This document shows, piece by piece, positions 3,510-20,000 of a DNA stretch of 20,000 nt. Source of the stretch: an uncultured Methanosarcinales archaeon (GTDB lineage Archaea; Nanobdellota; Nanobdellia; Woesearchaeales; UBA12501). Each line of letters begins with the position of its first letter. Within the stretch, counting starts at the first letter, position 1. Location: NCBI GenBank assembly GCA_964397315.1, contig CAYNHV010000005.1, forward strand, positions 49,466-69,465, read 5' to 3'. The position numbers were made by a program, and so were the translations under genes. Under the pieces are notes generated by a model that made no database searches, was not told the origin of the DNA, and saw only the letters and a program-made list of their open reading frames with translations.

Positions 3510-3538
3510 TCCTCCTTCATCATTCCTGGCTTAAGCCT

Positions 3539-3601
3539 TTATTTATCCCTTATTTATCCATTATTTATAATTTTAACGTGGATTTTATAATTTTAACGCG
3601 G
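3539..3601 (-). repeat. Tandem AT-rich repeats upstream of the large surface-protein gene, probably duplicated promoter elements
   Basis: TTTATAATTTTAACGYGG at 3564-3581 and 3584-3601 (20-bp period); TTATTTATCC at 3539-3548 and 3550-3559 (11-bp period). Confidence 0.65.
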
Positions 3602-3623
3602 CTTTGGCAGGATTGGCCTGTGT

Positions 3624-5588
3624 TCAGCTGAATGATGGCATGAGCCTAGTGTTGTAAGCTCCCTCCTCAAGCATTGTTATCATCCCAGCCATCTCTTTTG
3701 TGCTGCGGGGGTGGGGTATCTTCTCCAAGGCGGTGAAGGTTATGCTGCTCTTGCCCTTGAGCTGGCTGTCATCAACTGTCCAGTTGCCCCTGAAACCGCC
3801 TATTATCTTTCCTTTCCTGCTCAGGAGGGTTATGTCCAGCCTGTACTTTATGTCATCATCAGGCAGCTTTATGCTCCTGAACTTCTCAGGATCATCGCTC
3901 TCAGGAGGGTATCTCCTGAATATGCTGAAGTCCTCAAGCTGGTCTGTCTGCAGGTGGATGATGGCTGTCTCGTTGGGCTCAAGCTGCTGGGGCTGCTGGA
4001 GGTCAGGGCCTGTAAGCCTTCTCTTGACAACCTCAAAGTTCATCTCCTTCAGGGGTGTCATCAGTATGTCAGTGTAAGTGGCTTCAGGGCTTACTGTCTT
4101 TGTTGTCTTTGCATAATTCCTGTGGTCTGCCTCAAGCCTGGCAGGAGAGCAGAAGCTCGGCAGCCTGGTGCTGAGCCTGTTGACTCCGAGCTCAAATCCT
4201 GTCTTCCCAAGCCCGCAGTAGTACACGTTCATGCAGTTGAATGTGATGTTGACGCCGGGTATGTCCTCCATTGTCTTCTTGTCCTTTGCGTAGACTGCAA
4301 TCTCCCTGTCCAGCCTCTCATCGCAGAACTCACCGCCTATGCCCTCTGGATACTCATAGAGCTCTATGGGAAAGTCGCTCCTGTCCGGCTTGTTGTGGTT
4401 TATCAGCACAGGCGTGGCGTAGCGGAATGTGTAGCCCTCTCCGCCGAAGGCAGAGGGGTCTGTGACTCTTATCTCAACAGGGTATATGACATCATAGGTG
4501 AAGTGGTAGGCGTTGATGCACAAAAAGCTGAGGTAATACTGGGGGCTTCCCTTGCCCCAGCTTGACTCCAGCACATCTCCCCTGCCGGGCCTGGCGTGAA
4601 TCTCAAAGCTCCAGCCCTTCTGGTAATTGACATTGGCCCTTAAGTCCTTGTAATCTCTGGTTGCGGCATCCCAGAAGAAGTGGAAGTACTCATACGCATC
4701 CTCTGGAGTGTCCTCAGGTGTTATTCCCTTTCCTATGTCCTGCGGGGTGTACGCCCTCAAAAGCTCGTACTTGGAAGAGTGCTCCTGGAACGGAACATGG
4801 TCAGTGCCCTTGATGCGAATCTTGGGAATGTTGTAATAGAGCAAATTCTTGATGTCCTCCTCAATGTCAGGAAGATACCACTGCTTCTGGCCGCACTCAA
4901 AGAGTATGTCGGTGAAGGGTATATCCTTGCCTGCTGTCATAAGGTCTATGGTCATTTTCTCAAGAAATGCCTGGTTGTTCTCTGAGACCATTATCTCCTT
5001 TGCAAGATTGTAAACCCTTTTCATGCTGATGCTGAGCTCTGACGTGAACCTGCTCATGGTGCTGGCTCCCTCACTCCCCCTTAGCCTTACTCTCAGAGGA
5101 AATTCCATGTCAGCGACCACCTTGTTGTCGCTTATTGAAGAGTCAACAGTGATGTTTCCTGTCCTGGTTATGTTGAAGCTGTCTGACAATGCTGAGAAAT
5201 CAGCTATACACCCCATGATGTTCTCCTCAACATACTGGTCTATCTCCTGCTCCATGCCTGGAATTGTCGGAACCCTGGACCTGCCCCTGTAGAACCAGTA
5301 GGGAACCTTTGCCCCTCCCATGCTTATGTAGCTTGTGGGGTCATGCCTTATCCTGTCAGGCAGGTAGATGTAGCCGCCCTGCATGCCGAGTATGGCAACA
5401 CCATCCTTTACAGTGGAGTGGAGGCAGTCCTCAATGTACAGCTTGACAGGCATAAGCTCCTCAGGGACAACCTCCTCAGGCTCCTCAATGGCAATCTCAT
5501 GCCTGAAGTAGAGAATCACCCCTAGGAAAGCGAGAATAAAGATACCTATGATTATGAATACAGTAATCTGGCCTCTTTTTTTGAGCAT
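3624..5588 (-). CDS. 654-aa protein with class III (type IV prepilin-like) signal peptide; paralog of 11933..14131
   Basis: MLKKRG|QITVFIIIGIFILAFLGVILYF fits the archaeal PibD/FlaK cleavage pattern. Motifs PVKLYIEDCL, GMQGGYI, VPYW and DPSAFGGEGY are shared with the paralog. Confidence 0.85.
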   Translation of the reverse strand: MLKKRGQITVFIIIGIFILAFLGVILYFRHEIAIEEPEEVVPEELMPVKLYIEDCLHSTVKDGVAILGMQGGYIYLPDRIRHDPTSYISMGGAKVPYWFYRGRSRVPTIPGMEQEIDQYVEENIMGCIADFSALSDSFNITRTGNITVDSSISDNKVVADMEFPLRVRLRGSEGASTMSRFTSELSISMKRVYNLAKEIMVSENNQAFLEKMTIDLMTAGKDIPFTDILFECGQKQWYLPDIEEDIKNLLYYNIPKIRIKGTDHVPFQEHSSKYELLRAYTPQDIGKGITPEDTPEDAYEYFHFFWDAATRDYKDLRANVNYQKGWSFEIHARPGRGDVLESSWGKGSPQYYLSFLCINAYHFTYDVIYPVEIRVTDPSAFGGEGYTFRYATPVLINHNKPDRSDFPIELYEYPEGIGGEFCDERLDREIAVYAKDKKTMEDIPGVNITFNCMNVYYCGLGKTGFELGVNRLSTRLPSFCSPARLEADHRNYAKTTKTVSPEATYTDILMTPLKEMNFEVVKRRLTGPDLQQPQQLEPNETAIIHLQTDQLEDFSIFRRYPPESDDPEKFRSIKLPDDDIKYRLDITLLSRKGKIIGGFRGNWTVDDSQLKGKSSITFTALEKIPHPRSTKEMAGMITMLEEGAYNTRLMPSFS

Positions 5589-5612
5589 CTCAGCATGAAT
5601 TTGGAGATTACA

Positions 5613-5627
5613 TTTATAAATGTTTTT
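5613..5627 (-). promoter_or_regulatory. Archaeal TATA box with A-rich BRE-like flank for the 654-aa gene (leaderless)
   Basis: Minus strand AAAAACA-TTTATAAA; TATA at 5613-5620, 25 nt from ATG 5588. Confidence 0.7.
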
Positions 5628-5663
5628 GTTGGTAAACAGAGGGTAAACAGGGGGATGCAGAGG

Positions 5664-5907
5664 TTAACAAATCCTGATGATTCCTGGAGATGATATGGGC
5701 TTATGATTGTTATTCATGGTGATTCCTGCCATTTGGGAGGTTATGTTCTTATGCTTATAACTCATGGTACTTCCTTTTGGAGAAATGTGTTCCTGCTGAT
5801 TTTTCCTGATACTCCCTTTTGGGAAAGTGTGTTTTTGCTGATTCTTCATAGTGCCTCCCGCCCTCTAGGATATGATATTTTTATGATTATAATTCCTGGT
5901 ACTTCCC
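5664..5907 (-). repeat. Degenerate tandem repeat, about 5 units of 42-48 bp; includes a 61-aa repeat ORF (5664..5849)
   Basis: Minus-strand units begin GG(A/G)AGTA(C/T)C or GGAATCA(C/T)C, followed by AGGA or ATGA. In frame they read KNQQKHTFPKGS, KNQQEHISPKGS, SYKHKNITSQMAGIT, NNNHKPISSPGII. Confidence 0.6.
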
Positions 5908-6153
5908 ACCCTTACTGCACAACCACCTCACAAGTTCGCACCTTCTGAGTCCACACAACTCCCCGCTTCTGCCTCCAATAAGCCCTCCCAATGATATGCT
6001 TAAAGCGCTCTCGGGCTGGTGTTTGTGTGATTAGCATGTGTGAGGGGATGGGGGGCGGGAAAAATCAGGGTGTAAAGCAAACAGGGAGGAGGAGAAATCA
6101 GGAAGATTCATTGTTACTTCCTAATGAAATCCCGAAGGTTTACTATTTTTATA

Positions 6154-6316
6154 TGTCAGAAATATACCACTGATTTATTTAACCAGTGGACAAAGTCCAC
6201 AAAGGCATATCCGCAGAGGGTATATTTCTGAGCATGCTCAAAAACCACAGGTCAATAAAGAATGAGAATGAAGCTTTCGCTTCATGCCACCGGTCTCTGA
6301 CCGGTGGTTTTTGACA
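6154..6316. mobile_element. Non-coding bipartite palindromic element (MITE/REPIN-like or structured RNA)
   Basis: Ends TGTCA...TGACA; arm 6156-6168 pairs with 6219-6231 (13 bp); central palindrome TGAGCATGCTCA 6229-6240; arm 6238-6254 pairs with 6298-6314 (16/17); internal hairpins 6186-6200, 6268-6285, 6287-6307. The structure is seen directly; mobility is inferred. Confidence 0.5.
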
Positions 6317-6408
6317 AAACAATCAGGGCTGTGGAAAACTCTGGAAAACTTACAATCTCCGCAAGTTTCATATAAACTCAGCGCGGAGATGTCCTGCCCA
6401 GCACCTTC

Positions 6409-7272
6409 TCATGCCTTGACGTGCTTTTTGAAGACAGAGGCTGCGTAGAGCTTCGCCCAGGTGAGGAGGGCTATGAGCAGCACTGAGTTCAGCACGCTGC
6501 TGATGATTGTGGGCAGGAGAAAGGACAGCAGCGAGACCGCCCAGGCAACCATGAAAACTGCCGCAACAAGCAGGAGGGGGAGCCATAAGACATTAAGCTT
6601 CTTCACCCCCTCAACAAAGGCATTCTTTATTGATGAAAAGACCCTCTCTTTTTTCATGAAAGAGTAATATATCAGGTAGGTGAAGTAGAACAGGGCGATG
6701 ACATACAATAATATCATTATAACAGAGTATGCCATGACCAGCTGCGGAATTTTAAGCACGCCTGAGGACACAAAGATAAGGGCTCCTACTGCTATCACTG
6801 GAATTGCCCACACAATGTTAAGGAGGAAGAACCTCAGGAAATCCTTTACAGCCATGCCTTTCTCAACAAGCGTAGTCCATATCATGTATTTTGAGAGCGC
6901 AAAGCCGGCAATAAGAAGTATCACATAGATTACAGCTGCTGCAATCACCAGGTTGATTGCCCTTGAGATTCCGGCATTCATTGCAGATGCCTGCGCAACC
7001 GCGCCTGTGGTCAGAGCAGAGGGGTCCATGTACCTGAGAGGGTCAATTATCTTCTCCAGTGTAAAGCTCATTATAAAGGAGAGCGCAATAGCCAGGATGT
7101 AGAACATGATGTCAAAGGAAGCCACAAGCAGTGCCTTGAGGCTCTTCAACCGGCTGAAGCTATGCAGGAACCTGCTGAACTCTGCTGACGCGTAGGATTT
7201 CTTCTTTCCTGCGCTGCTTCTCTTGCTGCTGCTCTTGCTCTTCTTTGCTGTCTTGCGCTTTTTTGCCGCCAT
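6409..7272 (-). CDS. 287-aa polytopic membrane protein with Lys/Ser-rich basic N-terminal tail
   Basis: About 6-7 hydrophobic segments; N-terminus MAAKKRKTAKKSKSSSKRSS; Shine-Dalgarno AAGGAGGT just upstream (7280-7287). Confidence 0.85.
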   Translation of the reverse strand: MAAKKRKTAKKSKSSSKRSSAGKKKSYASAEFSRFLHSFSRLKSLKALLVASFDIMFYILAIALSFIMSFTLEKIIDPLRYMDPSALTTGAVAQASAMNAGISRAINLVIAAAVIYVILLIAGFALSKYMIWTTLVEKGMAVKDFLRFFLLNIVWAIPVIAVGALIFVSSGVLKIPQLVMAYSVIMILLYVIALFYFTYLIYYSFMKKERVFSSIKNAFVEGVKKLNVLWLPLLLVAAVFMVAWAVSLLSFLLPTIISSVLNSVLLIALLTWAKLYAASVFKKHVKA

Positions 7273-7310
7273 TTAAGATACCTCCTTCTGTTCATCAGAC
7301 ATCCGATTTA

Positions 7311-8585
7311 TCATGCCATGCCTGCATTGCCGCCCTCAGGCATGTCATCCCCAGCAGGGGGCTGGGGCCTGTTCTCTGGCTCAGGCTCACTATCGTCATC
7401 TCCGCCTCCAAGGCCAAGGTTCAGGTCAAAGCCTAAATCAAGGCCGCCGAATCCGCCAGAGCCGGGGCAGTATGAGCATGAGCCCATGTCAGGCGGAGCC
7501 CCTGCAACCTTAACAGACCTGCACGACCTGTCTCCACCAAGCACCAGCTCAGCCTCATTGTTGAAATTAGTCCCGTGGAACTCAAGGCAGACCCTGCTCA
7601 GGGGCTCGTTCATTGGTATGACAAGGGCTGAGCTTCCTGTAAGAGTGTAGGGGGCTGTGTCACATGCTATGTCCACCAGGTCTGGCTCGCCATCCAAGTT
7701 TATATCAGCCCTTTTCTTAGCCCCGGAATGCCTAAGGATGCCCACGATGTAAAATTTTATATGGTCATTGCAGTCGCTTTCTCCTGAATGCTCTGTAAGG
7801 CCTGAAGAGCTTACAAACACCTCAATCCTGTGCCAGTACTCCTCAACCATCTGGCTTGGATTATCCTCTGATGGGTGCACTATTCTCTGCACTTCCCCAG
7901 TTATCCACGCTGAGGGAGCCATCTGGCCCGGAAGAACCACCACACCCTCCTCAGCTGCCATGCTATCATAATCGGTGGAGTACCTGCATATGCTCTGCTC
8001 CCAGTTCCCTGACACGACCTGCCCGAACTCTGTGGATATGAAATCGCTCACCCCAAGGAAGTCTCCCATAACGCTGTCATCACTCCACCATTCATTCTCA
8101 ATTCCAAGCTGTACAAATCCCCCTGCTATTATCATGGCATCCCTGAATGACATATCAACAGGCTGAGTGAATCGCTGAAGGAAACCGCGGTTCTGGTTCA
8201 GCGCATACTCCACTTCATCATTATATAGGCCAGCGTCTTCTATATCGTCTGTTGTCATGGGTTCACGTCCATCTTCATCACAACCATGACCACTACATCT
8301 ATACATGTTATCATCATCATCAACATAATAGAAATTATAATCGGCGGGATCATTACTACCCTCTGGTCCGATTTCAATCATTTGTCCTCCTTCATCATCA
8401 GGCGTGGTAATAACATTTAATGTTTCCCCCTCAGTTTCTCCCTCCTGTGGCTTACCCTTCATCTGTTCCATTCCAGGTTCAACTCCATCATCCCCAACAG
8501 CAGCATATGCCATGCTCAAGAGCATCACCACTACTGCAATCAACGCAAGGCTTCTCTTAATGGTTTTGCTGTTTCCTTTTCTCAT
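7311..8585 (-). CDS. 424-aa secreted/surface acidic, Cys-containing hypothetical protein
   Basis: Sec-type signal MRKGNSKTIKRSLALIAVVVMLLSMAYA; Asp/Glu-rich; Gly/Pro-rich C-terminal tail; starts 12 nt after the stop of the 1092-aa gene. Confidence 0.82.
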   Translation of the reverse strand: MRKGNSKTIKRSLALIAVVVMLLSMAYAAVGDDGVEPGMEQMKGKPQEGETEGETLNVITTPDDEGGQMIEIGPEGSNDPADYNFYYVDDDDNMYRCSGHGCDEDGREPMTTDDIEDAGLYNDEVEYALNQNRGFLQRFTQPVDMSFRDAMIIAGGFVQLGIENEWWSDDSVMGDFLGVSDFISTEFGQVVSGNWEQSICRYSTDYDSMAAEEGVVVLPGQMAPSAWITGEVQRIVHPSEDNPSQMVEEYWHRIEVFVSSSGLTEHSGESDCNDHIKFYIVGILRHSGAKKRADINLDGEPDLVDIACDTAPYTLTGSSALVIPMNEPLSRVCLEFHGTNFNNEAELVLGGDRSCRSVKVAGAPPDMGSCSYCPGSGGFGGLDLGFDLNLGLGGGDDDSEPEPENRPQPPAGDDMPEGGNAGMA

Positions 8586-8597
8586 TTTGCTGCCTTT

Positions 8598-11500
8598 CTA
8601 CTCGTCACACTCAGGAGTCTCCATGTCCAGCGCCTGCGTGCACACTCCGCTCTGCAAGTCAAGAAGATCCTCATTCTCGCTTATCTGCTCAAAAGTGGCC
8701 ACAAGCGACATCACCTTGGGTGCAATCTTCAGGACTCTACATGTAGCATCTATATAAGGATGCGTCACTGCGCAGAACCACACCAGCCCCATAGCCAGAA
8801 GAAAAGCCATGGGATTCATCAGGATCTGAATGATTGCCTGTAATGCCTGCCTCACAAGATTTGCAAAAGGAATGAGCTGGAATATCTCTCCCCAGATGAA
8901 TATGCACCACTGGTAATCCCTGAGAGTGGTGCACATTGAAGGGGGAACTCCTGCAGGAACATACGCTTTCAGGCAGAGCAGGTACTGGCACTCTATCTCC
9001 ATCATCTTGTTCATGTTTATTATTATGCCAGGAATGCATACATACAGGATGCTTAATACTATGCTGTCCCTGGGATTGCCCCATAAGGGGCCTGTTGCGC
9101 TGTCCATGCTTGTTTCTGAAAGGCCTGCTGCCTCACCCAGGCCGGGGTGGCTTGCACTAAACTCCCCCAGTCCTGCTTCTGTGCTGCTGAACACACCGTC
9201 ACTGAGCCTGTCGAATGTATTGCCCACGCCCACTCCGCACCATGCGTCCACTGCTGCATTACCATCACCACCACTATCACCATCACCACCATCGCATAAC
9301 ACGGTCTTGCACGCTATGAAGTCGCAGAATGTGTTGAATGCTGTGAATGTTGAAGTGTCAGTAGCTTCTCCTGATGCTGCAAGAATGCTGAAGAACCAGG
9401 CTATCGGAGCCAGAAGGGTGCCTGCAAGCCATGATGTTGCTGCATTAAGCCCTGTGAGGAGCGTGTAAATCTCAAACATTGTCTTCACTGTCTGGCAAAG
9501 CAGCTGCGAAAGCTCCACCAGGTTGTTCAGCACAGTCCACCACTCACTCATCTCAACAAGCCAGCCTTCCTCCACATCCTCAATCTTCTCGCAAATGATG
9601 CTGTGCACCTCGTCATAGGCAAGAGTGCCTATGCTCATGGTGATGTTCTCCCTTTCAGGGTTTGACAGCATGCCATTGTACAGTGTTGTCAAAGTGAGAG
9701 AGCAGTTGAAATTAAGGGGGTCAACATCAATGGCTCCTGTGTAAAGCCCTACCTTGATCCACCTTTCTGTGGAGTTGGGCATGAAGTTCAGCATGTACGT
9801 GTTGCTGATGTCAGCATAATCATCAAAGTGCCAGCCGCAGGTTCTTGGGTCAAAGGACGCCCTGGCAAGCTCAACTCCGGGAACTTTAGGGGCAAGCTCT
9901 ATCTTGAACCAGATGTCATGGCCCACAATCATTGTTGTTGAGGAGTCCACAAAGCTTGGCTGGGAGCCTACAACCGCAGCATCCCAGTAGTCAGGGGTCT
10001 GGTTTCCCCCTCCGGGGTAGATGCGCACTCCAGTGAGGGGAAGCATGAACCACTCGCCAGAGCCCACATTGTATGTCTCTATGAAGAACTCGTCAACCTT
10101 CCTTGTGGGGGCTTTGGTGTTTCCCATTATGTCAGAGATGTTAAGCCACACCTTGAAGTCGCCCTCCTGGACGTTCATGAGCTCCCATGTGCAGTTCCAC
10201 AGCCTGTTGCCTGCGCCGCTTCTCGCGCCTGAATGCCAGCAGTCAGTTGCAGGAAGCCACATTCCGCTTGAGGTCCTGAATTTCGCAAAGACATTAAAGT
10301 CTCCGTCATCGTTCTTCAGCGCAGTGTTATCCTCTATCATCGCCCTCATAAGCATGTCATCCCCGCCCACAAAGAACGGCGCACCTTCCCTTGCTATGTT
10401 TCTTATGCTGACATTAAGAAGAGAGGGCTTTGAGTCATCATAAATCAGGGTTTCTGAGTAGGGGCTGAGCCGGTTTCCTGAATCATCAGAGCCTGTTATG
10501 GACACGCCAGCGTCTCCTGCAAGGCTCACATTGAACACTGTGCAGCGCCACTCCTCGCCCCCCATGCTGGTGCAGTTTGCGCTGTTGTTATAATCATTCT
10601 GCGCCCCTGACACTGATATTATAATGTTGCTTCCTGCAAGGCCGGCACCTGTGTCGTTTATCACTGCGGTGATATTGTTGAAGCCCGGAGCCACGTATCC
10701 TGTGTTGTTGTAGCTGTAATCAGTGAGCACGGCCTCAACCTCAGGAGCTGCTGAATCCTCTCCAAGGGATATCTGCTTTGTTGTTGACACCTTGTTTCCG
10801 CCGTCATCAGTGACAGTCACTTTTACAGAGCCTTCAACCTCTGACCTCATAACCGGAAGGTCTTTCACGCACTTGTATTCTGTTGTTGTCCTGCTTGTGC
10901 AGTCAAGCAGGGAGTCCTGGGAAAGCCCGAACATGGAGAGGTCTGCAACCGCGCTCTTTATGCCGAAGTACTCTGACGCTGTGGCCTCAACAACAAACTT
11001 TGCCCTTGTGCCTGCAGGGCTTATGTAGCTTATGGGCGCTGTTCCGCTCTCGTCATAAACGCCTGCAGCATCAATAACAGGCTGGGTGTCATCCTTTCTT
11101 ATCTCAACACACTTTGAGCCTGCACTTTCCTGGTCCAGCAGGTCATACGCCTTGAGGCATATTGTATGCACGCCGTTGCTCAGGGATGAGAGTGAGAAAT
11201 CATCTATTGTCCCGCTTTTTGAGCAGTCCTCTGAGTTTATGTCATCTGAGTGGAGGGATGTGCCGTCAAGCTTTGTTATCTCAATCCTGCTTATTCCTGA
11301 GCAGTAGTCTGAGGCTGTTGCGCCGAGCCTGTCCTTCACGCTGTATGAGGCAGATAGGCCTGTGCCTGTAGTGTTTCTGGGGCTTATGTCAAAGCTCTCA
11401 AGCAGGGGCCCGAATCCGTCAACAAGAATGTAAGAGCTTGCCCTGCAGTTCTGGTCGCTGCAGGATGAGCAGTCATTGGAGCAGCAGTTTCCTCCTCCTC

Positions 11501-11876
11501 CGAGGCAGACATCAAGATTGCGCTTTCCAGGAAATGGTGATGCTGTGAGGGAGTAAGAGCATGTGTAAGGAGGCCCGCCTCCTGGCTGGCCTGTGCAGCT
11601 GGTGAAGCTCCAGAACTCATAACTGCCGGGGTATGAGAGATGGAGCGCGTCTGCCAAAGCTGATGCCTCAACATGCTCGCCCGGAGTTACCTGCGCCTCA
11701 ACCTGAACTGTGTCGCCTGCCTTTGCAACATTCTCTATGCCGTCACTCCCTTTTATGCTCTCTATATTGACATTGCCTGAGACAGCGTAAACATTTGAGA
11801 CATAGAAGGGTATGGTTATGACTAGGAAGCTCATGAAGATTGCAAGTGTCTTCAGTATCTCCGGCTTGATTTTCAT
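8598..11876 (-). CDS. 1092-aa surface protein: signal/TM segment, Ig-like repeats, Cys-rich helical C-terminal domain with hydrophobic segments; paralog of <1..3509
   Basis: Hydrophobic N-terminus; Ig-type linkers DGFGP, DDTQP, DSAAP, DDSKP and DDGGN, DDSGN, DIMGN; C-terminal FCDFIAC and NPRDSIVLSILYVCIPGI; hydrophobic AIIQILMNPMAFLLAMGLVWFC. Confidence 0.88.
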   Translation of the reverse strand: MKIKPEILKTLAIFMSFLVITIPFYVSNVYAVSGNVNIESIKGSDGIENVAKAGDTVQVEAQVTPGEHVEASALADALHLSYPGSYEFWSFTSCTGQPGGGPPYTCSYSLTASPFPGKRNLDVCLGGGGNCCSNDCSSCSDQNCRASSYILVDGFGPLLESFDISPRNTTGTGLSASYSVKDRLGATASDYCSGISRIEITKLDGTSLHSDDINSEDCSKSGTIDDFSLSSLSNGVHTICLKAYDLLDQESAGSKCVEIRKDDTQPVIDAAGVYDESGTAPISYISPAGTRAKFVVEATASEYFGIKSAVADLSMFGLSQDSLLDCTSRTTTEYKCVKDLPVMRSEVEGSVKVTVTDDGGNKVSTTKQISLGEDSAAPEVEAVLTDYSYNNTGYVAPGFNNITAVINDTGAGLAGSNIIISVSGAQNDYNNSANCTSMGGEEWRCTVFNVSLAGDAGVSITGSDDSGNRLSPYSETLIYDDSKPSLLNVSIRNIAREGAPFFVGGDDMLMRAMIEDNTALKNDDGDFNVFAKFRTSSGMWLPATDCWHSGARSGAGNRLWNCTWELMNVQEGDFKVWLNISDIMGNTKAPTRKVDEFFIETYNVGSGEWFMLPLTGVRIYPGGGNQTPDYWDAAVVGSQPSFVDSSTTMIVGHDIWFKIELAPKVPGVELARASFDPRTCGWHFDDYADISNTYMLNFMPNSTERWIKVGLYTGAIDVDPLNFNCSLTLTTLYNGMLSNPERENITMSIGTLAYDEVHSIICEKIEDVEEGWLVEMSEWWTVLNNLVELSQLLCQTVKTMFEIYTLLTGLNAATSWLAGTLLAPIAWFFSILAASGEATDTSTFTAFNTFCDFIACKTVLCDGGDGDSGGDGNAAVDAWCGVGVGNTFDRLSDGVFSSTEAGLGEFSASHPGLGEAAGLSETSMDSATGPLWGNPRDSIVLSILYVCIPGIIINMNKMMEIECQYLLCLKAYVPAGVPPSMCTTLRDYQWCIFIWGEIFQLIPFANLVRQALQAIIQILMNPMAFLLAMGLVWFCAVTHPYIDATCRVLKIAPKVMSLVATFEQISENEDLLDLQSGVCTQALDMETPECDE

Positions 11877-11932
11877 TGTTCTTCCCTGCTTTTTCCTTAA
11901 TGAATTAACATGAATCTTTAAATTTTATTGGT

Positions 11933-14131
11933 TCATCCTGAGCTGACAAACCTGGGCTGGAGCAGCTCCGCGTTTGCAGGGGCTATTTTTGAGTTAATCT
12001 GCGTCAGCCCCTGAAGGTCGCTGTGCTTCCTGTCCCCCTGGGGAACACCCCTGATGTTGAAGTTGAGGGCTGTGAGCTCAAGGTCAGTGTCATTAACATT
12101 CACGTACAGCTCATTGCCTATCACAACATTCAGCTTGTATTCTCCCTCAAAAAGGGGGCTGTTGTATGAGAGGTTTATTGGATCTATTGTCTCGCACTCC
12201 TCATCATCAGGAGGGCACACAGTTGTGCACTTGCATATCTCATCCTCTGGTATTATCACTGTGGTGTTATCCCTCAGGAGAATGACCTGCAGGGAATAGT
12301 TGCCTGGTATGAGCCTCATCCTTCCCTTGTGCGTCCTGTTTATGTCTCCCCCTCCCATGACCTCGTCATCAAACTGGCTTTCCTTCTTTCTCTGCATCAC
12401 CACGCCCGCGTGCTCCTTGCTGTCAGGCCTTCTTCTTCCAGGAGTGAGCACCCACTCATACTGTGGAATATAGTTTTCATATGTCAGCTCTTTATCAATG
12501 TCCATGATCTTGATGGTCACGTTCTTGACAACATACCTGGGCATTCTTATTATCCCAATGTCTTTTGGCTCTTCTGATGCCATGAAATATGGCTTGTGGC
12601 CTGTTGCATAATCCATGTGCTTCAGCACAACCGAGCCTAGAGCTCCTGTAGGGAACTTGCCTTCAAAGTTGCCCTCCTCGTCTGTCTCTCCTATGACGCA
12701 GGAGGTGGTTCCAGAGCTGAACATCACAACAGCGTCCTTGACAGGCTGGCCGAGACTGTCTCTCGCCTTTAAGCTGACAGGCGCGCTGTCCCTGTACTTC
12801 TCAAGGCAGAGCTGCTGAGAGGGCTCCCCCCTTGCCACGCTCTTCAGCTGGACAGACTTTGCGGTAAATGGCTGGTTGTTTCTTATGTTGCTTTCTAATG
12901 CAAAGAAGAAGTCATAACCCTCTCCCATGAACGCGCTGGGGTCATGAAGGTTTACCATCACCGGAAATGAAAGGTCATAAGGGGTATCATACTTTTTGAC
13001 AGGGAATATAAGGGACACAAAAGGCACTGTGATGCCGTCCCTTGGCCCGACCATGGCGCTGTCTGTAAGGTAAAGGTATATCGGCCATCCAAAGTAGTTG
13101 AAGTTCACGTCAATGTGGCCTACAAACTCTTCCTGGTCCTGCAGGGGAATCACCATTCCGCTGTAAAGGCCTGTCTTGATGTCCTCTCCCTCAAAGTAGG
13201 GAAGCTCAAACCCTCTTGTCCTTGTGGCCTGAAGGGCATTAACGTATATTGAGAGGATCTCCTTCAGCTTCTTCTCAACATCAGACATAAGCCATCTCTC
13301 TGCTGTGAAGCTGAAGTCAGTTCCTGTGACAGGAGGCAGATCCCTGTCAAGCCCTGAATAGATTGATATGAGGTTGAGGGCGTGAGTCTCAAGCGCGTTG
13401 CCGTCGCTCTCTGTTCTTCTTATCTCGTCTGCAAGGCGGTATATCCTGTCAAGGTCAATTGCGTAATCAGCAGAGAAGAGCGAGATTGTTGATGTTCCTC
13501 CCTCCCATGATGCTTCCAGGGGATATTCAACCTTTATGGACACGTCATTCCTTGCTATTGTTGTCTCTGCCTTTACGCCACTTGTATTCCTTATATTGAT
13601 CCCTTTCTCCCTGAATGATCTCAGGCCTGCTGCCATGCACTTGGGAAGATTAACCTGCACATACCTGTCAATCTGCTCCTCTATTGAGTTCTCGCCGTCA
13701 TCTCTTCTGAGGGGCGGCTGCTGAAGGTCAAAGCTGCACTTGCCCCTGCAGTCATTGGACGAGCTCATGTGCCACCAGTAGGGGATGTGCCATCCTTCTG
13801 ACATCCTCAATGCATCATGCTCTGTGGGGTTTCTTCCTGAATGGTCTATGCTGAATGTGGTATGGGTGTATTTCGTGGATGCTTCAGGGGACAATCCAAT
13901 GTAGCCGCCATGCCTGCCTGCCATCCTTATTGCCTGCTTTCCTGTCTCTTTAAGACATTCCTGAACATAGCTCTTGACAGGCTGAAGCTCAAGAGGAACT
14001 TCCTCGGTGAGTCTCTCAGTCTCATCCTCTTTTGCCTCCCTTAACTGGAGAAAGAGCATGATAACAACAGAGAAGAGGATTATAATGCCTATTATGATAA
14101 AGATTGTGGTCTGTCCCTTTTTTGACTGCAT
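11933..14131 (-). CDS. About 732-aa protein with class III (prepilin-like) signal peptide and C-terminal beta-sandwich region; paralog of 3624..5588
   Basis: Preferred start ATG 14131: MQSKKG|QTTIFIIIGIIILFSVVIMLFL. Motifs PVKSYVQECL, GRHGGYI, IPYW, DPSAFMGEGY; segment VSLKARDSLGQPVKDAVV...TDEEGNF resembles carboxypeptidase-regulatory-like domains. Confidence 0.85.
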   Translation of the reverse strand: MQSKKGQTTIFIIIGIIILFSVVIMLFLQLREAKEDETERLTEEVPLELQPVKSYVQECLKETGKQAIRMAGRHGGYIGLSPEASTKYTHTTFSIDHSGRNPTEHDALRMSEGWHIPYWWHMSSSNDCRGKCSFDLQQPPLRRDDGENSIEEQIDRYVQVNLPKCMAAGLRSFREKGINIRNTSGVKAETTIARNDVSIKVEYPLEASWEGGTSTISLFSADYAIDLDRIYRLADEIRRTESDGNALETHALNLISIYSGLDRDLPPVTGTDFSFTAERWLMSDVEKKLKEILSIYVNALQATRTRGFELPYFEGEDIKTGLYSGMVIPLQDQEEFVGHIDVNFNYFGWPIYLYLTDSAMVGPRDGITVPFVSLIFPVKKYDTPYDLSFPVMVNLHDPSAFMGEGYDFFFALESNIRNNQPFTAKSVQLKSVARGEPSQQLCLEKYRDSAPVSLKARDSLGQPVKDAVVMFSSGTTSCVIGETDEEGNFEGKFPTGALGSVVLKHMDYATGHKPYFMASEEPKDIGIIRMPRYVVKNVTIKIMDIDKELTYENYIPQYEWVLTPGRRRPDSKEHAGVVMQRKKESQFDDEVMGGGDINRTHKGRMRLIPGNYSLQVILLRDNTTVIIPEDEICKCTTVCPPDDEECETIDPINLSYNSPLFEGEYKLNVVIGNELYVNVNDTDLELTALNFNIRGVPQGDRKHSDLQGLTQINSKIAPANAELLQPRFVSSG

Positions 14132-14219
14132 CTTAACCCCTTTTGTGAACAAAACAGGCGTGAAACAAGCGAACCCGCGCGCCTCTGCAACCCTTGTGGG
14201 GCTGATTATTCTATATTTT

Positions 14220-15444: not shown

Positions 15445-17550
15445 TCAGCTGACCTTTCCCTTCTCCAGATCAACCCTCACCTCTGACTTGCCTGCCCTGA
15501 GAGGCTCTCCCTTGTAATACACCCTGCCGTGGCTTATGGTGAGCTTCACCTTGTTGAAGTCGTCAATTCCCACCTCCTTGTCAGGCTGGGGCTCAATTCC
15601 ATTCACAAAAACGCTTGCGCCGGGCTCCTCATCAGACTCAAGAATCCTGACATTCCTTCTGTCATCCCCTGCAAGAAGCATTCCTGCAGAGGTCTCTCCC
15701 TTGAGCTTTGCAGGCCTGAGGTTCTTCACAATGACAATATTTTTCCCCTCAATCTCCTCAGGAGAGTAATGGCCTGCAAGCCCTGCCACAATCTGCCGCT
15801 TCTCAGAGCCAATGTCAACCTGCATTATGAGCAGCTTGTCTGCATCAGGATGCTTCCTGGCCTCAACAACCCTTGCTGTCCTGAGGTCAAGCAGGGCAAG
15901 AGGGTCTTTTACTGCTATGCTCTCAAGCTCATCCCCTATCTTGCTGATCAGTATTTCCGCTTTCCCGAGCTTCCGGCTCTCCAGCTTCTTTCCCAGGCAG
16001 TCCCAGCTCTGCTCTTCCAGGTTAAGCTGCTTTTCAATGCCTGCTGAAAATCTTGGAAGCACCGGCTTTATGAGTATTGAGATTTCCTTCACAAGGTTGA
16101 CGCAGAATGAAACAACCTCTTTCATTCTCTTCCATTCATCGCTGTCTTTTTCTTTTTTTGCAAGCTCCCACGGCTTGTTGTCCTGGAAGTACTTGTTGCC
16201 TACTGAGCCTGCCTCAAGGATAAGGCTCACTGCCCTCCTGAAATTGTATGACCTGTACGCTTCTTTTATCTCATCATACTTCTGCCTGAGCTTCTCCTCC
16301 AGCTCAGGCTCGCTGAATGCTTCTGTCTCTGAGCCGAGATTTTTCTCTGCAAAGCTCACCACCCTGTAGGTGAAGTTTCCCAGGTCAGCCACAAGCTTGT
16401 TGTTAATGCTGCTCCTGAAATCCTCAAAGTCAAGGTCAATGTCGCCCTCTGACTTTGTGAGGTTTGACGCGTAATAGAACCTCAGGTATTCGGGATCAAG
16501 AGCCTTCAGGTAATCCCTTGCAGTGAAGAAAGTTCCCCTTGACTTGGACATCTTCTCCTTGTTTACGGTGAGGAAACCGTGCACCACAATGTCCTCAGGA
16601 AGAGAGAAGCCTGAGTTCATGAGCATGGCCGGCCAGAAAAGAAAGTGGAAGTAGATTATGTCCTTGCCTATGAAATGGATTATCCTGCCGTGCTTCCAGT
16701 AATCCTCAACCTTCTCCTTTCCCTTCATTATGTTCCTGCAGTAATTCTCTGTTGAGGAGATATACCCTACAGGCGCGTCAAGCCACACGTAATAATAGAG
16801 GTCCTTCTCTCCAGGGATGTTGAAGCCGAAGTAAGGGCCGTCCCTTGTTATGTCCCAGTCCCGCAAACCTTCTTTTATCCAGCCCAGCACGTAGTTCCTC
16901 ACCTCAGGCTGGAGGTTCCTGTTGCTGTTAAGCCATTCCCTGAGGTCATCAGCGCATGAGCTGAGCCTGAAGAAGTAATGCTCTGAGGATCTTGTTGTCG
17001 GGGGCGAGCCGCATATGGCGCAGTAAGGCTCTGCAAGGTCTGTTGTGGAGTATGTTGCATTGCACTTCTCGCACACGTCTCCATACTGGTCGTCAGCCCC
17101 GCACTTTGGGCATTTTCCCTTCACATACCTGTCAGGAAGGAACCTGTTGCATTTGGGACAGTAGATGAGCTCAACCTTTTTCTTGTATATGAGCCCGTTC
17201 TCCCTGAGCCTTGTGAAGATGAGGTCGCTGAATCTCTTGTTCTCCTCTGAGTTTGTTGAGTGGTAGCTGTCAAAGCTTATGAGAAACTCATTGAAGTCCT
17301 TAAGATGCTCCTCATGCATCTGGTTTATGAGATAAGTGGGGGGGATGCCCTTTTTCATGGCAGCAATCTCAATAGGAGTTCCGTGGGTGTCGTCAGCGCA
17401 GCAGTAGATGGCCTTCTCTCTGGTGAGCCTGAGGAACCTCACAAAGATGTCTGTCTGGATGTACTCCACCATGTGGCCTATGTGGAGCGGGCCGTTGGCG
17501 TAAGGCAGAGCTGATGTCACAACAGTCTTCTTTTGTGTTTTCTTCTGCAT
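15445..17550 (-). CDS. metG: Methionyl-tRNA synthetase with C-terminal tRNA-binding OB (Trbp111/EMAP-like) domain
   Basis: TSALPYANGPLHIGH, zinc knuckles CPKC/CPKC/CEKC/CAIC, YYVWLDAPVGY, KMSKS, and HPDADKL...RQIVAGL...NLRPAKLKG. Start 17550 preferred because TTTATATA lies at 17574-17581. Confidence 0.97.
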   Translation of the reverse strand: MQKKTQKKTVVTSALPYANGPLHIGHMVEYIQTDIFVRFLRLTREKAIYCCADDTHGTPIEIAAMKKGIPPTYLINQMHEEHLKDFNEFLISFDSYHSTNSEENKRFSDLIFTRLRENGLIYKKKVELIYCPKCNRFLPDRYVKGKCPKCGADDQYGDVCEKCNATYSTTDLAEPYCAICGSPPTTRSSEHYFFRLSSCADDLREWLNSNRNLQPEVRNYVLGWIKEGLRDWDITRDGPYFGFNIPGEKDLYYYVWLDAPVGYISSTENYCRNIMKGKEKVEDYWKHGRIIHFIGKDIIYFHFLFWPAMLMNSGFSLPEDIVVHGFLTVNKEKMSKSRGTFFTARDYLKALDPEYLRFYYASNLTKSEGDIDLDFEDFRSSINNKLVADLGNFTYRVVSFAEKNLGSETEAFSEPELEEKLRQKYDEIKEAYRSYNFRRAVSLILEAGSVGNKYFQDNKPWELAKKEKDSDEWKRMKEVVSFCVNLVKEISILIKPVLPRFSAGIEKQLNLEEQSWDCLGKKLESRKLGKAEILISKIGDELESIAVKDPLALLDLRTARVVEARKHPDADKLLIMQVDIGSEKRQIVAGLAGHYSPEEIEGKNIVIVKNLRPAKLKGETSAGMLLAGDDRRNVRILESDEEPGASVFVNGIEPQPDKEVGIDDFNKVKLTISHGRVYYKGEPLRAGKSEVRVDLEKGKVS

Positions 17551-17573
17551 AAGGCCCTCAGAGAGGGGTTTTA

Positions 17574-17581
17574 TATATAAA
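17574..17581 (-). promoter_or_regulatory. TATA box of metG (leaderless)
   Basis: TTTATATA on the minus strand, 24 nt from ATG 17550. Confidence 0.7.
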
Positions 17582-17717
17582 GGTTGCCTTATAAATCCTG
17601 CAGGGGTCATAAGGGCTTAGAATGCCTTAGTGTGTGGCAGTGAACGCCTTTCTTCCTCAATCCCGGGAAACAGGCCAACCCCAAAATTTATATAATCAAT
17701 CATACAAGTTTATGATA

Positions 17718-18053
17718 ATGAGACACGGAGAACACCATCAACACCAAAGAAAAAGGATTCATGTTAAGCATGAAAAATATCCACATCCAGATAAAAGGAT
17801 CAAATTGTTGGATCGCGTTTGCATGGTTTTCTCTGTTGTCATGCCCGCAACAACAATTCCTCAAATCTATAAGACCTATGTCTTTCAAGATGCAACAGGT
17901 GTTTCGTTATGGATGTGGGCATTATATTGTTTTGCAGTAGTCCCATGGTTAATTTATGGAATCGTCCATAAGGCAAAACCCATAATAGTTCTTAATATTC
18001 TTTGGTTGATTGTCCAAGTGATTATGATTGTTGGTGTTCTCCTTTATGGTTGA
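17718..18053 (+). CDS. SemiSWEET/PQ-loop family 3-TM transporter with His-rich N-terminus (111 aa)
   Basis: TTIPQIYKTY...DATGVSLWMW...WLIYGIVHKAKPIIVLN; TTTATATA at 17687-17694 supports ATG 17718 (alternative 17712). Confidence 0.85.
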   Translation: MRHGEHHQHQRKRIHVKHEKYPHPDKRIKLLDRVCMVFSVVMPATTIPQIYKTYVFQDATGVSLWMWALYCFAVVPWLIYGIVHKAKPIIVLNILWLIVQVIMIVGVLLYG

Positions 18054-18069
18054 ATGGGTTTTGGCTCAA

Positions 18070-18141
18070 CTCTGAAATCTTCCTTCGGAATGTCGCACTA
18101 AATTTCCGCCCTTCGGGAAATATAACCTCGTTATGCACAAT
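18070..18141 (+). other. Putative cassette recombination site 1 (hairpin spacer plus core)
   Basis: Hairpins TTCC-TTC-GGAA and CCC-TTC-GGG, then core TATAAC-CTC-GTTATGCACAAT at 18121-18141. Confidence 0.65.
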
Positions 18142-18156
18142 TGAGTTTTTGGCGCT

Positions 18157-18675
18157 TTAGTTCTTTTCAACTATCTTGATAGCCTTACAGTTATACTTAT
18201 CAAAAAGAATTCTTGTTTTAGATGTTCTTTCAGCACATAAAGCAGTTATCCCAATAACTTTTCCACCTTGCTTTTCAATTAACTTAATAGCAGCTTTAAT
18301 TTGTGATCCTGTCTCAATCCACTCATCTACAATTAAAACTTTATCTCCTTTCTTAATTGAATCTTTATTCATCTCAAAGGTTTTCTTTTTATTAGTATAA
18401 TCTACAACTGCTGTCCTAATAACCGTTCCTCTCACGCCCGGAAGTTTATCTCCTTTCCTTATAGGAACAAAACCTTTTTTTAATTTATGAGCCATAGCCC
18501 CGCCAATTATAAATCCTAAAGCATCAATTCCTACAATTACATTGAAATTCTTGAAAGGTTTAATTAAATCATTTATAAGATTAGAGAAAACTTTTGGATT
18601 CTGAAATATAGGTGTAACGTCACATCTCAGCTTTGTTCTCTTATTAACATGTTTATCATAATATTCATACTTCAT
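18157..18675 (-). CDS. apt: Adenine phosphoribosyltransferase-like type I PRTase
   Basis: DVTPIFQNP, IVGIDALGFIIG, FVPIRKGDKLPG and PRPP-binding loop VLIVDEWIETG; TATA box at 18698-18705. Confidence 0.85.
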   Translation of the reverse strand: MKYEYYDKHVNKRTKLRCDVTPIFQNPKVFSNLINDLIKPFKNFNVIVGIDALGFIIGGAMAHKLKKGFVPIRKGDKLPGVRGTVIRTAVVDYTNKKKTFEMNKDSIKKGDKVLIVDEWIETGSQIKAAIKLIEKQGGKVIGITALCAERTSKTRILFDKYNCKAIKIVEKN

Positions 18676-18732
18676 AGAGCAAACAAGAATTCTTTACTAT
18701 ATAAATGTTCTTAGAACACGCCAAAAACTCAA

Positions 18733-18798
18733 CTCATTCGAGCCTTCGGCTCTCGGCCTTCGCTATCGCTCAGGGTATATAACATCGTTAAGTTCAAT
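18733..18798 (+). other. Putative cassette recombination site 2 (hairpin spacer plus core)
   Basis: CTCATTCGA start, hairpin GAGCC-TTC-GGCTC at 18740-18752, core TATAAC-ATC-GTTAAGTTCAAT at 18778-18798. Confidence 0.65.
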
Positions 18799-18830
18799 AA
18801 TTTTTTGAGCTCTCTAATAGAACTCCCGCC

Positions 18831-19337
18831 CTATTTTTTGGGCGCTTTCTCACCAAGATTTTTCAAATCAAGGATATCAACATCTCTCATCAATTTCCGT
18901 TTGTATGCAATGAGTTCTTTTTTTGGAATTATTGGTAGTTCTAAACCGAAGACTTTCTTAATTGTTGGCTTTGATAAACCATCATCAAGCTTCTGCCACT
19001 TTTTTGTTTTTGAATCAAGAAATTTGCATCCTTTATCGCCACCAATTTCAATTGTAATCCCATCTTTTTCTATTTCCATATAGTAGCATTCCCAATTTTC
19101 TGATTTTGAGAAATGTGGTGGCTCTACAATATAATCCTTTACATCAGGCAGAAGCTTTTGAAAGTCTTCGTTTTTCATAGCTAAATCTATATCTACCAAC
19201 ATTCTTTTTGAACCATATGCATACGCCGCTAATCCTCCGAGAATATTGAATCTTATCTTTTTTCGCTTCAATATTTCAACAATCCATTTTAATGTTTTCT
19301 CGTAGGATTTTTGGTCAATCTCTTTAAATTCTTCCAT
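18831..19337 (-). CDS. Pol-beta superfamily nucleotidyltransferase-like protein (168 aa)
   Basis: ILGGLAAYAYGSKRMLVDIDLA (GG...DxD motif), third acidic strand ITIEIG, C-terminal LIAYKRKLMRDVDILDL; TATA-like TTTAATAA at 19363-19370. Confidence 0.75.
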   Translation of the reverse strand: MEEFKEIDQKSYEKTLKWIVEILKRKKIRFNILGGLAAYAYGSKRMLVDIDLAMKNEDFQKLLPDVKDYIVEPPHFSKSENWECYYMEIEKDGITIEIGGDKGCKFLDSKTKKWQKLDDGLSKPTIKKVFGLELPIIPKKELIAYKRKLMRDVDILDLKNLGEKAPKK

Positions 19338-19427
19338 ATGGTTATTAGATTGAAATTGATGTTTATTAAATTAACGAAAGTGCCCTTTTAATTTCCCACC
19401 CTTAAAAATGGCGAGCTCAAAAAATTA

Positions 19428-19515
19428 CTCCTTCGAAAAATCAAAGATTTTTCTCGGGCACGTTGCACTCTCCTCACTTCGTTCGTCGGCGGATTTAACA
19501 GGGGTTATGCACAAT
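19428..19515 (+). other. Putative cassette recombination site 3 (hairpin spacer plus core)
   Basis: CTCCTTCGA start, hairpin GAAAAATC-AAA-GATTTTTC at 19435-19453, core TTTAAC-AGGG-GTTATGCACAAT at 19494-19515. Confidence 0.65.
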
Positions 19516-19551
19516 TTTCAAAAATCCGTCTAAGAATTAAGGGAAGGGTGC

Positions 19552-19929
19552 TTACTTATCTGCTTTGATCTTCATTTTTTTGAATAATTTAATCAAATCA
19601 CTTCCAGTATAGTTCTTGCTGCTTTCTAACTCATTTAATGCTGGTATATTTTCTATAGCTTTTTCATCTGCTTTGTTTGCAAAACCATAATACTCGTGCT
19701 TTGGGTCAACACACTTACTTTTATGTTCACAGCCATGACAAACTGAATCCAAGTCTTTAACATACTTAAATTCCAAAGATGGATCCTCATGAATTTTCCT
19801 AAAAATATCTCTAGTGTGAAGAATGGCTTTGTCAGAATAAAAATCTTCCGGATGACCAGAATCCTTAAAAGCCTTCTTCCTAGCTGCAATATACTCCTTA
19901 TCAGGCAAATTATAAGATTCGGGCGACAT
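19552..19929 (-). CDS. 125-aa hypothetical protein with DxxCxxC...C motif (resembles DUF1284 putative metal-binding proteins)
   Basis: DSVCHGCEHKSKC followed by ADEKAI; AT-rich codon usage like its neighbours. The family call is tentative. Confidence 0.6.
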   Translation of the reverse strand: MSPESYNLPDKEYIAARKKAFKDSGHPEDFYSDKAILHTRDIFRKIHEDPSLEFKYVKDLDSVCHGCEHKSKCVDPKHEYYGFANKADEKAIENIPALNELESSKNYTGSDLIKLFKKMKIKADK

Positions 19930-20000
19930 CTCATGGTAATAGAATATTTGTATTTGTTTAGCTCTTTAGCACAGGTTTGTGCTTAGCATCCTGTGGAGTT

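Follow-up and report, generated by a model that had tools for sequence, protein, structure and literature searches.

A probable integron-type cassette array with cassette-borne outer helices and a candidate XerA-like recombinase in a Woesearchaeota-like archaeon

Analysis of the window (the whole 20,000-nucleotide stretch of contig CAYNHV010000005.1 studied here) indicated that its final part, from 17.6 to 20 kb, is probably where an integron-type cassette array of a Woesearchaeota-like archaeon begins, with a XerA-like tyrosine recombinase as the candidate enzyme; we put the probability of this reading at about 0.68. The source genome comprises 1.47 Mb in 61 contigs, is 93% complete and matched the archaeal small subunit (SSU) ribosomal RNA model with 1412 bits. 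Below, G000 denotes this genome, C-numbers denote contigs, and other G and L labels denote genomes and stretches of its relatives.

The original prediction was that two cargo genes in this region, an apt-like phosphoribosyltransferase gene and a nucleotidyltransferase-like gene, are each bracketed by a perfect inverted repeat of their own in fixed register with a conserved core. Both repeats were recovered: TTGAGTTTTTGGCG (18141-18154) pairs with CGCCAAAAACTCAA (18719-18732) in 14/14 positions around the first gene, and TAATTTTTTGAGCTC (18798-18812) pairs with GAGCTCAAAAAATTA (19413-19427) in 15/15 positions around the second. Both left arms begin at the T of CAAT, in the cores GTTATGCACAAT (18130-18141) and GTTAAGTTCAAT (18787-18798), and the right arms are followed by CTCATTCGA and CTCCTTCGA, respectively. 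The two arms flanking one chromosomal site were mismatched, as had been claimed: in the window, 7/13 and 3/13 positions were complementary across a site, whereas a cassette's own arms matched in 13/13. The means for 63 sites were 5.00/13 across one chromosomal site and 12.81/13 for the cassette's own arms. A third perfect 15-nt inverted repeat, absent from the original prediction, is present in the same 2.5 kb (18204-18218 and 18681-18695) and is a caveat on any argument about chance in the window.

The genome was scanned for 13-mers read from a CAA/T or TAA/T boundary (the slash marks the boundary) with a reverse complement within 9 kb that is followed by CT. The scan returned 210 matches at two or fewer mismatches, and all of the perfect ones (7/7) were located at GTTAnnnnCAA/T cores on contigs C5, C23 and C53. 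The register was then compared over 239 loose cores in 35 stretches from the source genome and its relatives, with shifted registers as controls. At the true register, 39 perfect and 19 one-mismatch 13-nt partners were found, against 0 and 7 at a shift of +20, 1 and 5 at +40, and 1 and 7 at -30; together with the scan, these counts show that the arms are not due to chance. The conserved core at whose T each left arm starts is GTTAnnnnCAAT. Among 76 strict cores, 34 had arms (at most one mismatch, then CT), 4 had arms with two mismatches, 6 were array termini and 1 left no room for a partner. In an intact array of ~25 kb (G313:C3), arms were present on 21/21 consecutive cassettes, and further units thus do carry a complement at the far end. 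The arm helix had a median length of 14 bp (range 11-24, 70 cassettes).

Cassettes with identical arms in different genomes shared their ends only, and their cargo differed. On one side, what they have in common is the core with the left arm and ~7 nt; on the other, it is the site with the right arm and ~45 nt. The claim that each gene has its own arms therefore stands as a general, register-locked property of cassettes here and in relatives, but not as a property private to the cargo gene: since identical arms surround unrelated cargo, they are variants of site families and not gene tags. Furthermore, a second, nested inverted repeat (an exact run of at least 11 nt) was found in 23/46 cassettes compared to 4/400 mismatched controls. 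Its copies are typically set in from the left arm by 12-16 nt and from the right arm by 36-48 nt, and a GTTC...GAAC hairpin module lies in between. The third repeat of the window may belong to this kind, with atypical spacing. A ~45-nt module, GTTC-TTGATAG-TCGCTATTCGCTC-...GATAGAAC, was observed between the second and first right arms (G000 C23:814-848 and 4628-4672; G238 L059), and is conserved across genomes around different cargo.

The anatomy of the sites was derived from 42 sites taken between a right arm and the next core. The sites are modular and 63-269 nt long. Counted from the right arm, they first have a conserved module, in which two hairpins separated by CGTTGCAC follow a CTCTKCGG-type start. 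Next comes an attC-like hairpin, made up of R'' (NNNNM-TAAC), a single base, the inner stem, GAT and R' (GTTA-KNNNN), and then AA and the left arm. The inner L-like stem spans 0 to ~110 nt and is explicit in the long sites, for example GCGATTAAGAG / CTCTTAATCGC; a stem of at least 8 nt was present in 24/27 long sites and in 98/500 mismatched controls. In 27 short sites the stem was shrunk to a palindrome (GGAATTCC, GGGCCC or AGGATCC) or to a 3-nt loop. The 7-mers fit the attC consensus RYYYAAC / GTTRRRY loosely (e.g., GTTAGTT, GTTATGC), and the R''/R' box and the inner stem are both present. The 'hairpin spacer plus core' of the original prediction was correct in that a hairpin region is closed by a stem. 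That region is really a canonical-like attC hairpin to which a further module is attached, and the second nested repeat is found in about half of the cassettes; the predicted arms are an additional outer helix around the attC-like hairpin.

On the + strand, an integrated cassette thus reads as follows. The left half consists of TTA-KNNNN-AA and the outer (P1) left arm, often with a second left arm ~12-16 nt further inward. The middle contains the cargo gene in either orientation, followed by the second right arm with the ~45-nt hairpin module. The right half consists of the P1 right arm, the two-hairpin module (CTCTKCGG..., CGTTGCAC) and the attC-like hairpin ending in GAT-G. The orientation of the cargo was unbiased: of 49 cassettes, 25 had their longest open reading frame (ORF) on the top strand, 23 had it on the bottom strand and 1 had none. 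A TATA-like box, TTTATATA, is present between the start of the apt-like gene and the right arm of the same cassette, and each cargo gene may carry its own promoter. The integron arrangement of mostly promoterless, co-oriented cassettes read from a common promoter was thus not seen.

The five variable R' bases of the core preceding a cassette are complementary to the R''-like 9-mer of the site that follows that cassette. In the first set (n = 42), all five matched in 26 cassettes, with a mean of 4.33, while adjacent and random cores gave 2.40 and 2.46, respectively; the own match was better than the adjacent one in 35, equal in 3 and lower in 4. The result was replicated in an array outside the discovery set (n = 21), with 5/5 in 18, a mean of 4.76 compared to 2.10, and the own match better in 19, equal in 2 and lower in none. 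The covariation bears out the proposal that chromosomal sites are chimeras of neighbouring cassettes. As R' covaries with its own downstream R'', the segment TTA-KNNNN-AA and the left arm belong to the cassette on the right, and the exchange falls to the left of the fifth base of GTTAK, within the constant GTTA or ahead of it. The crossover is probably equivalent to the G/TT of integrons, within a range of phosphodiester bonds that the covariation leaves inside or before GTTA. The exchange point had been placed at CAA/T, which did not hold: the five variable bases to the left of CAA covary with the downstream R'', and the crossover is ~10 nt further left. The original prediction was therefore right in spirit and wrong in register. 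A reading of the conserved GTTAKNNNCAAT as a dif-like duplex arm with a crossover at CAA/T was dropped on the same covariation. A chromosomal site would then combine the R'' half and the module of cassette n with the R' half and the left arm of cassette n+1, and the circle junction of the apt-like cassette would read ...GAT-G + TTATGCACAA + TTGAGTTTTTGGCG.

Four tyrosine recombinases were identified in the genome, and only the one on contig C53 is Xer-like. Its gene (C53:1484-2284, minus strand) is ~95 nt from, and divergent to, a core GGTGTTAGTTACAA followed by T (fuller form GCGCTTAATAGGTGTTAGTTACAA, then T), after which a first cassette of 2.3 kb with 13/13 arms begins. A site adjoining and divergent from a recombinase gene at the head of an array is the arrangement of attI. 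The best match of the protein among solved structures was Pyrococcus abyssi XerA, over the full length. The alignment to Vibrio cholerae IntI (2a3v) was split, with query residues 191-212 opposite IntI residues 179-245 (21 amino acids facing 66). Similarly, the protein scored 175.8 bits against the integron integrase model TIGR02249 (cut-off 265) with model positions 177-238 unmatched, and the IntI-specific domain around patch III is lacking. It scored 203.5 bits against NF040815 (XerA_Arch), under the cut-off of 220. The 120 best homologues were 242-291 amino acids long, and the best ones were labelled Woesearchaeota or Nanoarchaeota, from which the name used here for the archaeon is taken. 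Within the family of genomes, identity to the C53 protein was in two classes, 60-71% and 35-44%, and G011 has both. The other tyrosine recombinases include two long proteins with a C-terminal CxxC...CxxC (G000 C36:9432-10748 and C2:75018-76421), on or near low-G+C DNA, which are likely integrases of other integrated elements.

A core was located divergently upstream of the recombinase gene in 9/15, 2/4 and 4/4 homologue loci (a loose core in the last set), and in some of them cassettes start there. An empty site at G011:C42 consists of the core and TATTACTCGG, and empty sites and array termini share the flank TATTACTC, which is what insertion at attI predicts. The flank TATTACTC(R) follows the core across several families (L050 6911-6945, L060, L054, L055, L061 and G011:C42) and probably represents the right half of the native attI. 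In G114, an empty site was not adjacent to a recombinase gene. In the relative G313, a recombinase gene with an attI-like site was found at the end of contig C5, separate from the contig with the ~25-kb array; the latter, at G313:C3:526000-559389 (L090 and L091, reverse strand), is a run of at least 21 cassettes with a terminal-type TATTACTCGG flank in mid-stretch (position 17855, reversed), and thus comprises two arrays back to back. The array end at G000 C23:6622-6712 reads ...CCGATGTTA followed directly by CTCCTCAAAGG, and the stop codon of an opposite-strand GNAT-like gene overlaps GTTA. The usual KNNNCAATATTACTC flank is missing here, which would fit an insertion or a deletion at the second TTACTC. 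The core GATGTTAKNNNCAAT was present in 165/251 sampled genomes of the order with 346 matches, a tally that includes seven genomes flagged as unpublished and for which the reversed-pattern control columns were mostly zero (not totalled). The core was also present in other orders of the class. The low-G+C ends of contigs C47 and C50 were considered as further arrays, and no such sites were seen on inspection.

The strongest alternative is a conventional integron whose true IntI is encoded elsewhere, either unassembled or too divergent, with the XerA-like gene being a housekeeping dimer-resolution enzyme that acts at its own site and has no role in cassette movement. The genome is incomplete and arrays break contigs, the Xer-like gene was single-copy in 4/5 relatives searched, and archaeal IntIs with the IntI domain are known while most archaeal arrays have no linked integrase, according to the main sections of Ghaly et al. 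(2022, PMC9668308). No TIGR02249 match over the cut-off was found in the source genome, nor any IntI-model match over the cut-off in 101 genomes of the order (at least 90% complete), in a search made without a positive control. Furthermore, the Xer-like gene adjoins a core in 15/23 loci. We regard this alternative as unlikely.

The folding of the sites was analysed with DNA parameters in 42 cases. As had been proposed, when the ends of a cassette were joined in silico, the arm stem closed the site, and the resulting circle form was lower in energy than the chromosomal form in 42/42 (mean -34.1 compared to -21.1 kcal/mol), with the arm pairing itself following from the selection of the set. In the circle form, the module hairpins and the R-box hairpin branch from a multiloop closed by the arms. 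The bottom strand folded lower than the top strand in 40/42. On the top strand of the 42 sites, CTTCG occurred 63 times and CGAAG 0 times, and the triloop hairpins comprised 35 with TTC and 1 with GAA, with 0 TTCG tetraloops. The bottom-strand loops thus read GAA closed by C-G, which is a very stable DNA mini-hairpin, and on this account the bottom strand is the likely substrate.

These results bear on a second alternative, in which XerA acts on duplex dif-like cores in the manner of integrative mobile elements exploiting Xer recombination (IMEX) or of pdif modules, and the inverted repeats are incidental or serve another purpose. The recombinase is indeed XerA-like, and the core with its left neighbour (CTTAAT-N4-6-GTTA...) is, we presume, loosely similar to a two-armed Xer site. 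However, four helices (the outer arms, the second arms, the R box and the inner stem) keep their complementarity while their sequences change, which matters only for folded single strands and therefore argues against duplex sites. The loop polarity is one-stranded (63 against 0), and all sites within an array point the same way, unlike those of pdif modules. We consider duplex sites improbable.

A third alternative, which we judge very improbable, is that the arms and hairpins work at the RNA level (as processing stems, terminators or circular RNAs) and have no part in DNA recombination. Compact hairpins between genes would suit such elements, and CTTCGG resembles an RNA tetraloop motif. However, no Rfam family matched at E ≤ 1 over positions 17000-20000 of the window, and the loops are TTC triloops (35) and not TTCG tetraloops. 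With 25 and 23 cassettes in the two cargo orientations, the transcript of one strand would contain the motif in only half of the cassettes; the TATA-like box is inside the right arm of the apt-like cassette, and the R'/R'' chimerism requires DNA exchange. Least credible is that Y1 (HUH) transposases, like those of IS200/IS605 or REP/RAYT elements, move the units by single-strand transposition; these are enzymes that use DNA hairpins and short cleavage motifs and of which the source genome has a single Y1_Tnp gene (G000 C20:6959-7306, 83 bits), given that this gene is on a contig without an array site (the sole loose-core match there is within the transposase gene itself), that Y1_Tnp was not found in 3/5 array-rich genomes (completeness 95-99%), and that tandem, directly oriented sites by a tyrosine recombinase fit site-specific recombination.

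Within the integron-type reading, the XerA-like protein is the candidate enzyme. In a circular or back-folded single strand, the R''/R' box and the arms of one cassette would pair into one long interrupted helix closing the site. By analogy with integrons, the recombinase would then exchange one strand at G/TTA between the folded bottom-strand site and attI or another site. Since only a cassette's own ends form the full helix, the second arms, the outer arms and the R box are proposed, speculatively, to hold both crossover points of a cassette close to each other in single-stranded DNA. The same helices might make the site of an excised circle more stable, whereas the folding of chimeric chromosomal sites would be poor. 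A bolder reading, possible though not probable, is that a plain XerA-type recombinase without the IntI insertion captures and releases cassettes at folded single-stranded attC-like sites, with the outer helices as a self-addressing device: no ends but those of one cassette would synapse, and the chimeric chromosomal sites would stay unfolded and inert.

Mobility was assessed in assembled Logan contigs from three runs of one microbial mat metagenome study. Some contigs parted from the window close to site boundaries, at 17683, 18793, 18798 and 19425; with a likeness of 90% in a metagenome, these contigs may derive from relatives. No joint in these contigs skipped or circularised a cassette. A contig of run X2 linked 16200 directly to 17368 and so lacked 1167 nt of metG, which may reflect an assembly artefact or an origin in another organism.

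A number of observations weigh against the integron-type reading or parts of it. No circle, excision junction, or empty and filled alleles of the window cassettes were detected in the assembled contigs of the three runs, and passage through single-stranded circles is an inference. A contig in runs X2 and X3 joined the nucleotidyltransferase cassette to foreign sequence from 18793; this break is inside the core, to the right of the likely crossover, and is thus a misfit with exchange at G/TTA. No cargo was shared between array contexts in 70 cassettes, an all-against-all comparison of whose interiors returned one trivial overlap and one 88-nt match; the comparison thus gave no instance of one cassette having moved between contexts. 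The window's own R''/R' match was weak, with 3/5 variable bases in both complete cassettes, and 31/76 strict cores had no ungapped arm partner, some of them being cut by locus ends or resembling chance in-gene matches (not formally sorted). The arm mismatches were uninformative on the folding strand (3 top-strand G.T, 4 bottom-strand G.T and 11 others). In the leftmost unit of the window, the right arm (18056-18069) is present with no matching left arm, an irregular start for an array. With regard to the enzyme, 8/23 recombinase loci had no adjacent core, and the IntI-model search had no positive control. As the sole Xer-like gene in several genomes adjoins the site, the C53-type protein may be either a dedicated paralogue or simply the housekeeping XerA; its action at these sites is suggested by the attI-like linkage.

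The features of the window are listed in Table 1. The G+C content drops from ~0.50 to ~0.34 immediately past metG, and Pfam analysis of the four ORFs in the low-G+C tail indicated a PQ-loop/SemiSWEET-like protein, a phosphoribosyltransferase, a weak nucleotidyltransferase-like match and DUF1284. The left edge of the array (17683-17700) reads AAAATTTATATAATCAAT; as it has neither GTTA nor a left arm matching 18056-18069, the first unit looks like a fusion or a secondary-site insertion. The cassette behind the third core (19504-19515) is cut by the end of the window, where the contig also ends, and its left arm occurs paired in another genome (L036 7044/8164). Further upstream, positions 3-14152 contain very large minus-strand ORFs in a row (1169, 654, 424, 1092 and 739 amino acids) with at most Ig-like or fibronectin-like matches, which are probably surface proteins. 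Elsewhere in the genome, the 16S rRNA match at G000 C8:868-2515 spans 1648 nt, compared to 1478 model positions, which suggests an insertion or intron.

Table 1. Coordinates of the array features in the window.
Feature	Position	Strand	Basis or remark
metG, methionyl-tRNA synthetase; final ordinary chromosomal gene ahead of the array	15445..17610	-	Pfam tRNA-synt_1g, E 1e-148
PQ-loop/SemiSWEET-like ORF, cargo of leftmost unit	17634..18053	+	Pfam PQ-loop 24.3 bits, MtN3_slv 23.3 bits
Right arm (P1, 5' strand) of leftmost unit, GGGTTTTGGCTCAA, then CTCTGAAAT	18056..18069	+	Position and next motif as in other right arms
Site 1: 5' module (TTC-loop hairpins, GTCGCAC), R''-like AAATATAAC (18118-18126), 3-nt loop, G of GTTA	18070..18130	+	Sequence; anatomy from 42 sites
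Core GTTATGCACAA (R'-like GTTATGCAC + AA)	18130..18140	+	Likely crossover in or before GTTA, e.g. between 18130 and 18131 (covariation)
Left arm (P1, 3' strand) of phosphoribosyltransferase cassette	18141..18154	+	14/14 with 18719-18732
Phosphoribosyltransferase (apt-like) cargo gene	18157..18675	-	Pfam Pribosyltran, E 1e-17
Inner nested repeat, left copy AAAGAATTCTTGTTT	18204..18218	+	15/15 with 18681-18695
Inner nested repeat, right copy	18681..18695	+	Pairs with 18204-18218
Right arm of phosphoribosyltransferase cassette	18719..18732	+	Inverted-repeat search
Site 2: CTCATTCGA, GAGCC-TTC-GGCTC hairpin, R''-like GTATATAAC (18775-18783), ATC loop, G of GTTA	18733..18787	+	Sequence, fold
Core GTTAAGTTCAA	18787..18797	+	Likely crossover about 18787/18788
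Left arm of nucleotidyltransferase-like cassette	18798..18812	+	15/15 with 19413-19427
Nucleotidyltransferase-like cargo ORF	18831..19337	-	Weak: Pfam DUF2204 18.2 bits (cut-off 20.3), Aminoglyc_resit 17.2 (cut-off 21)
Right arm of nucleotidyltransferase-like cassette	19413..19427	+	Inverted-repeat search
Site 3: CTCCTTCGA, GAAAAATC-AAA-GATTTTTC hairpin, CGTTGCAC, R''-like GGATTTAAC (19491-19499), G of GTTA	19428..19504	+	Sequence, fold
Core GTTATGCACAA	19504..19514	+	Likely crossover about 19504/19505
Left arm of third cassette, TTTTCAAAAATCC	19515..19527	+	Partner past window/contig end
DUF1284 cargo ORF of third cassette	19552..19929	-	Pfam DUF1284 25.2 bits

The system shares with integrons the tandem cassettes between directly oriented sites, the R''(..TAAC) / R'(GTTA..) box with an inner stem, the variable part of R' that travels with the downstream cassette to leave chimeric sites in the array, and the tyrosine recombinase gene divergent beside an attI-like site. 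In classical cassettes, complementarity ends at the 7-bp core sites; here, the R box is 9 bp and is extended by a cassette-borne outer helix of 11-24 bp, often with a second one. The conserved two-hairpin module branching between the helices, the unbiased cargo orientation and the recombinase without the IntI-specific domain are further differences. Integrons in Archaea are already known from Ghaly et al. (2022, PMC9668308), whose main sections describe attC sites as canonical R''...R' hairpins, IntIs that carry the IntI domain, and archaeal arrays, those of Woesearchaeales included, of which most have no integrase. The TTC polarity of the top-strand loops is that of the aadA7 attC in its Data S10, the L'-spacer-R' layout resembles the Nanoarchaeota attC in its Data S9, and outer helices are not mentioned in the sections and data sheets of it that the analysis covered. 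In literature searches that mostly left subscription journals outside, neither Xer-type cassette arrays nor outer helices on attC sites were found described, and the same holds for the branched module, for conserved cassette ends around unrelated cargo and for a Xer-type recombinase without the IntI domain at attI.

The likeness to other Xer-related systems is partial. In IMEX of the CTX-phage type, integrated at dif by XerCD, folded single-stranded DNA builds the site and the integrated hybrid no longer refolds. A Xer-family enzyme, a folded single-stranded site made of inverted segments and a non-refolding hybrid would be common to both, whereas here single-gene cassettes stand in long arrays with an attC-like R/L architecture, and phage functions are absent. 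The pdif modules of Acinetobacter plasmids have duplex 28-bp Xer-type sites in alternating orientation; they are likewise small cargo modules bounded by Xer-type sites, but the sites here are all co-oriented within an array and have a conserved hairpin structure. XerA dimer resolution uses a single 11-6-11 bp dif near the replication terminus and not beside xerA. The site here is multi-copy and beside the recombinase gene, unlike the dif of Thermococcales, which is not adjacent to xerA (PMC2958812). The Y1 partner expected of IS200/IS605 or REP/RAYT elements was not found in three of the five array-rich genomes. The inner hairpin is of the attC kind already known from archaeal integrons, and the system is probably a kind of integron with a XerA-like recombinase, cassette-borne outer helices and a conserved branched module as novel features.

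Integrons are the textbook case of gene capture via folded single-stranded DNA, and their origin from Xer-type recombinases and the way in which cassettes are built are open questions. The system described here is widespread; its recombinase lacks the IntI hallmark domain, and to the attC logic it adds a conserved branched module and one or two helices carried by the cassettes. Should the XerA-like enzyme be the integrase, attC-type recombination would not require the IntI domain, and the integrase-less archaeal arrays would gain a candidate enzyme, which would explain the apparent lack of an integrase in most of them. That cassette ends are conserved while the cargo is unrelated suggests a reusable chassis, which bears on how cassettes are formed. 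If cassettes are indeed moved by a Xer-type enzyme, the system would be either a living analogue of the transition from Xer to IntI or an independent invention of the integron principle.

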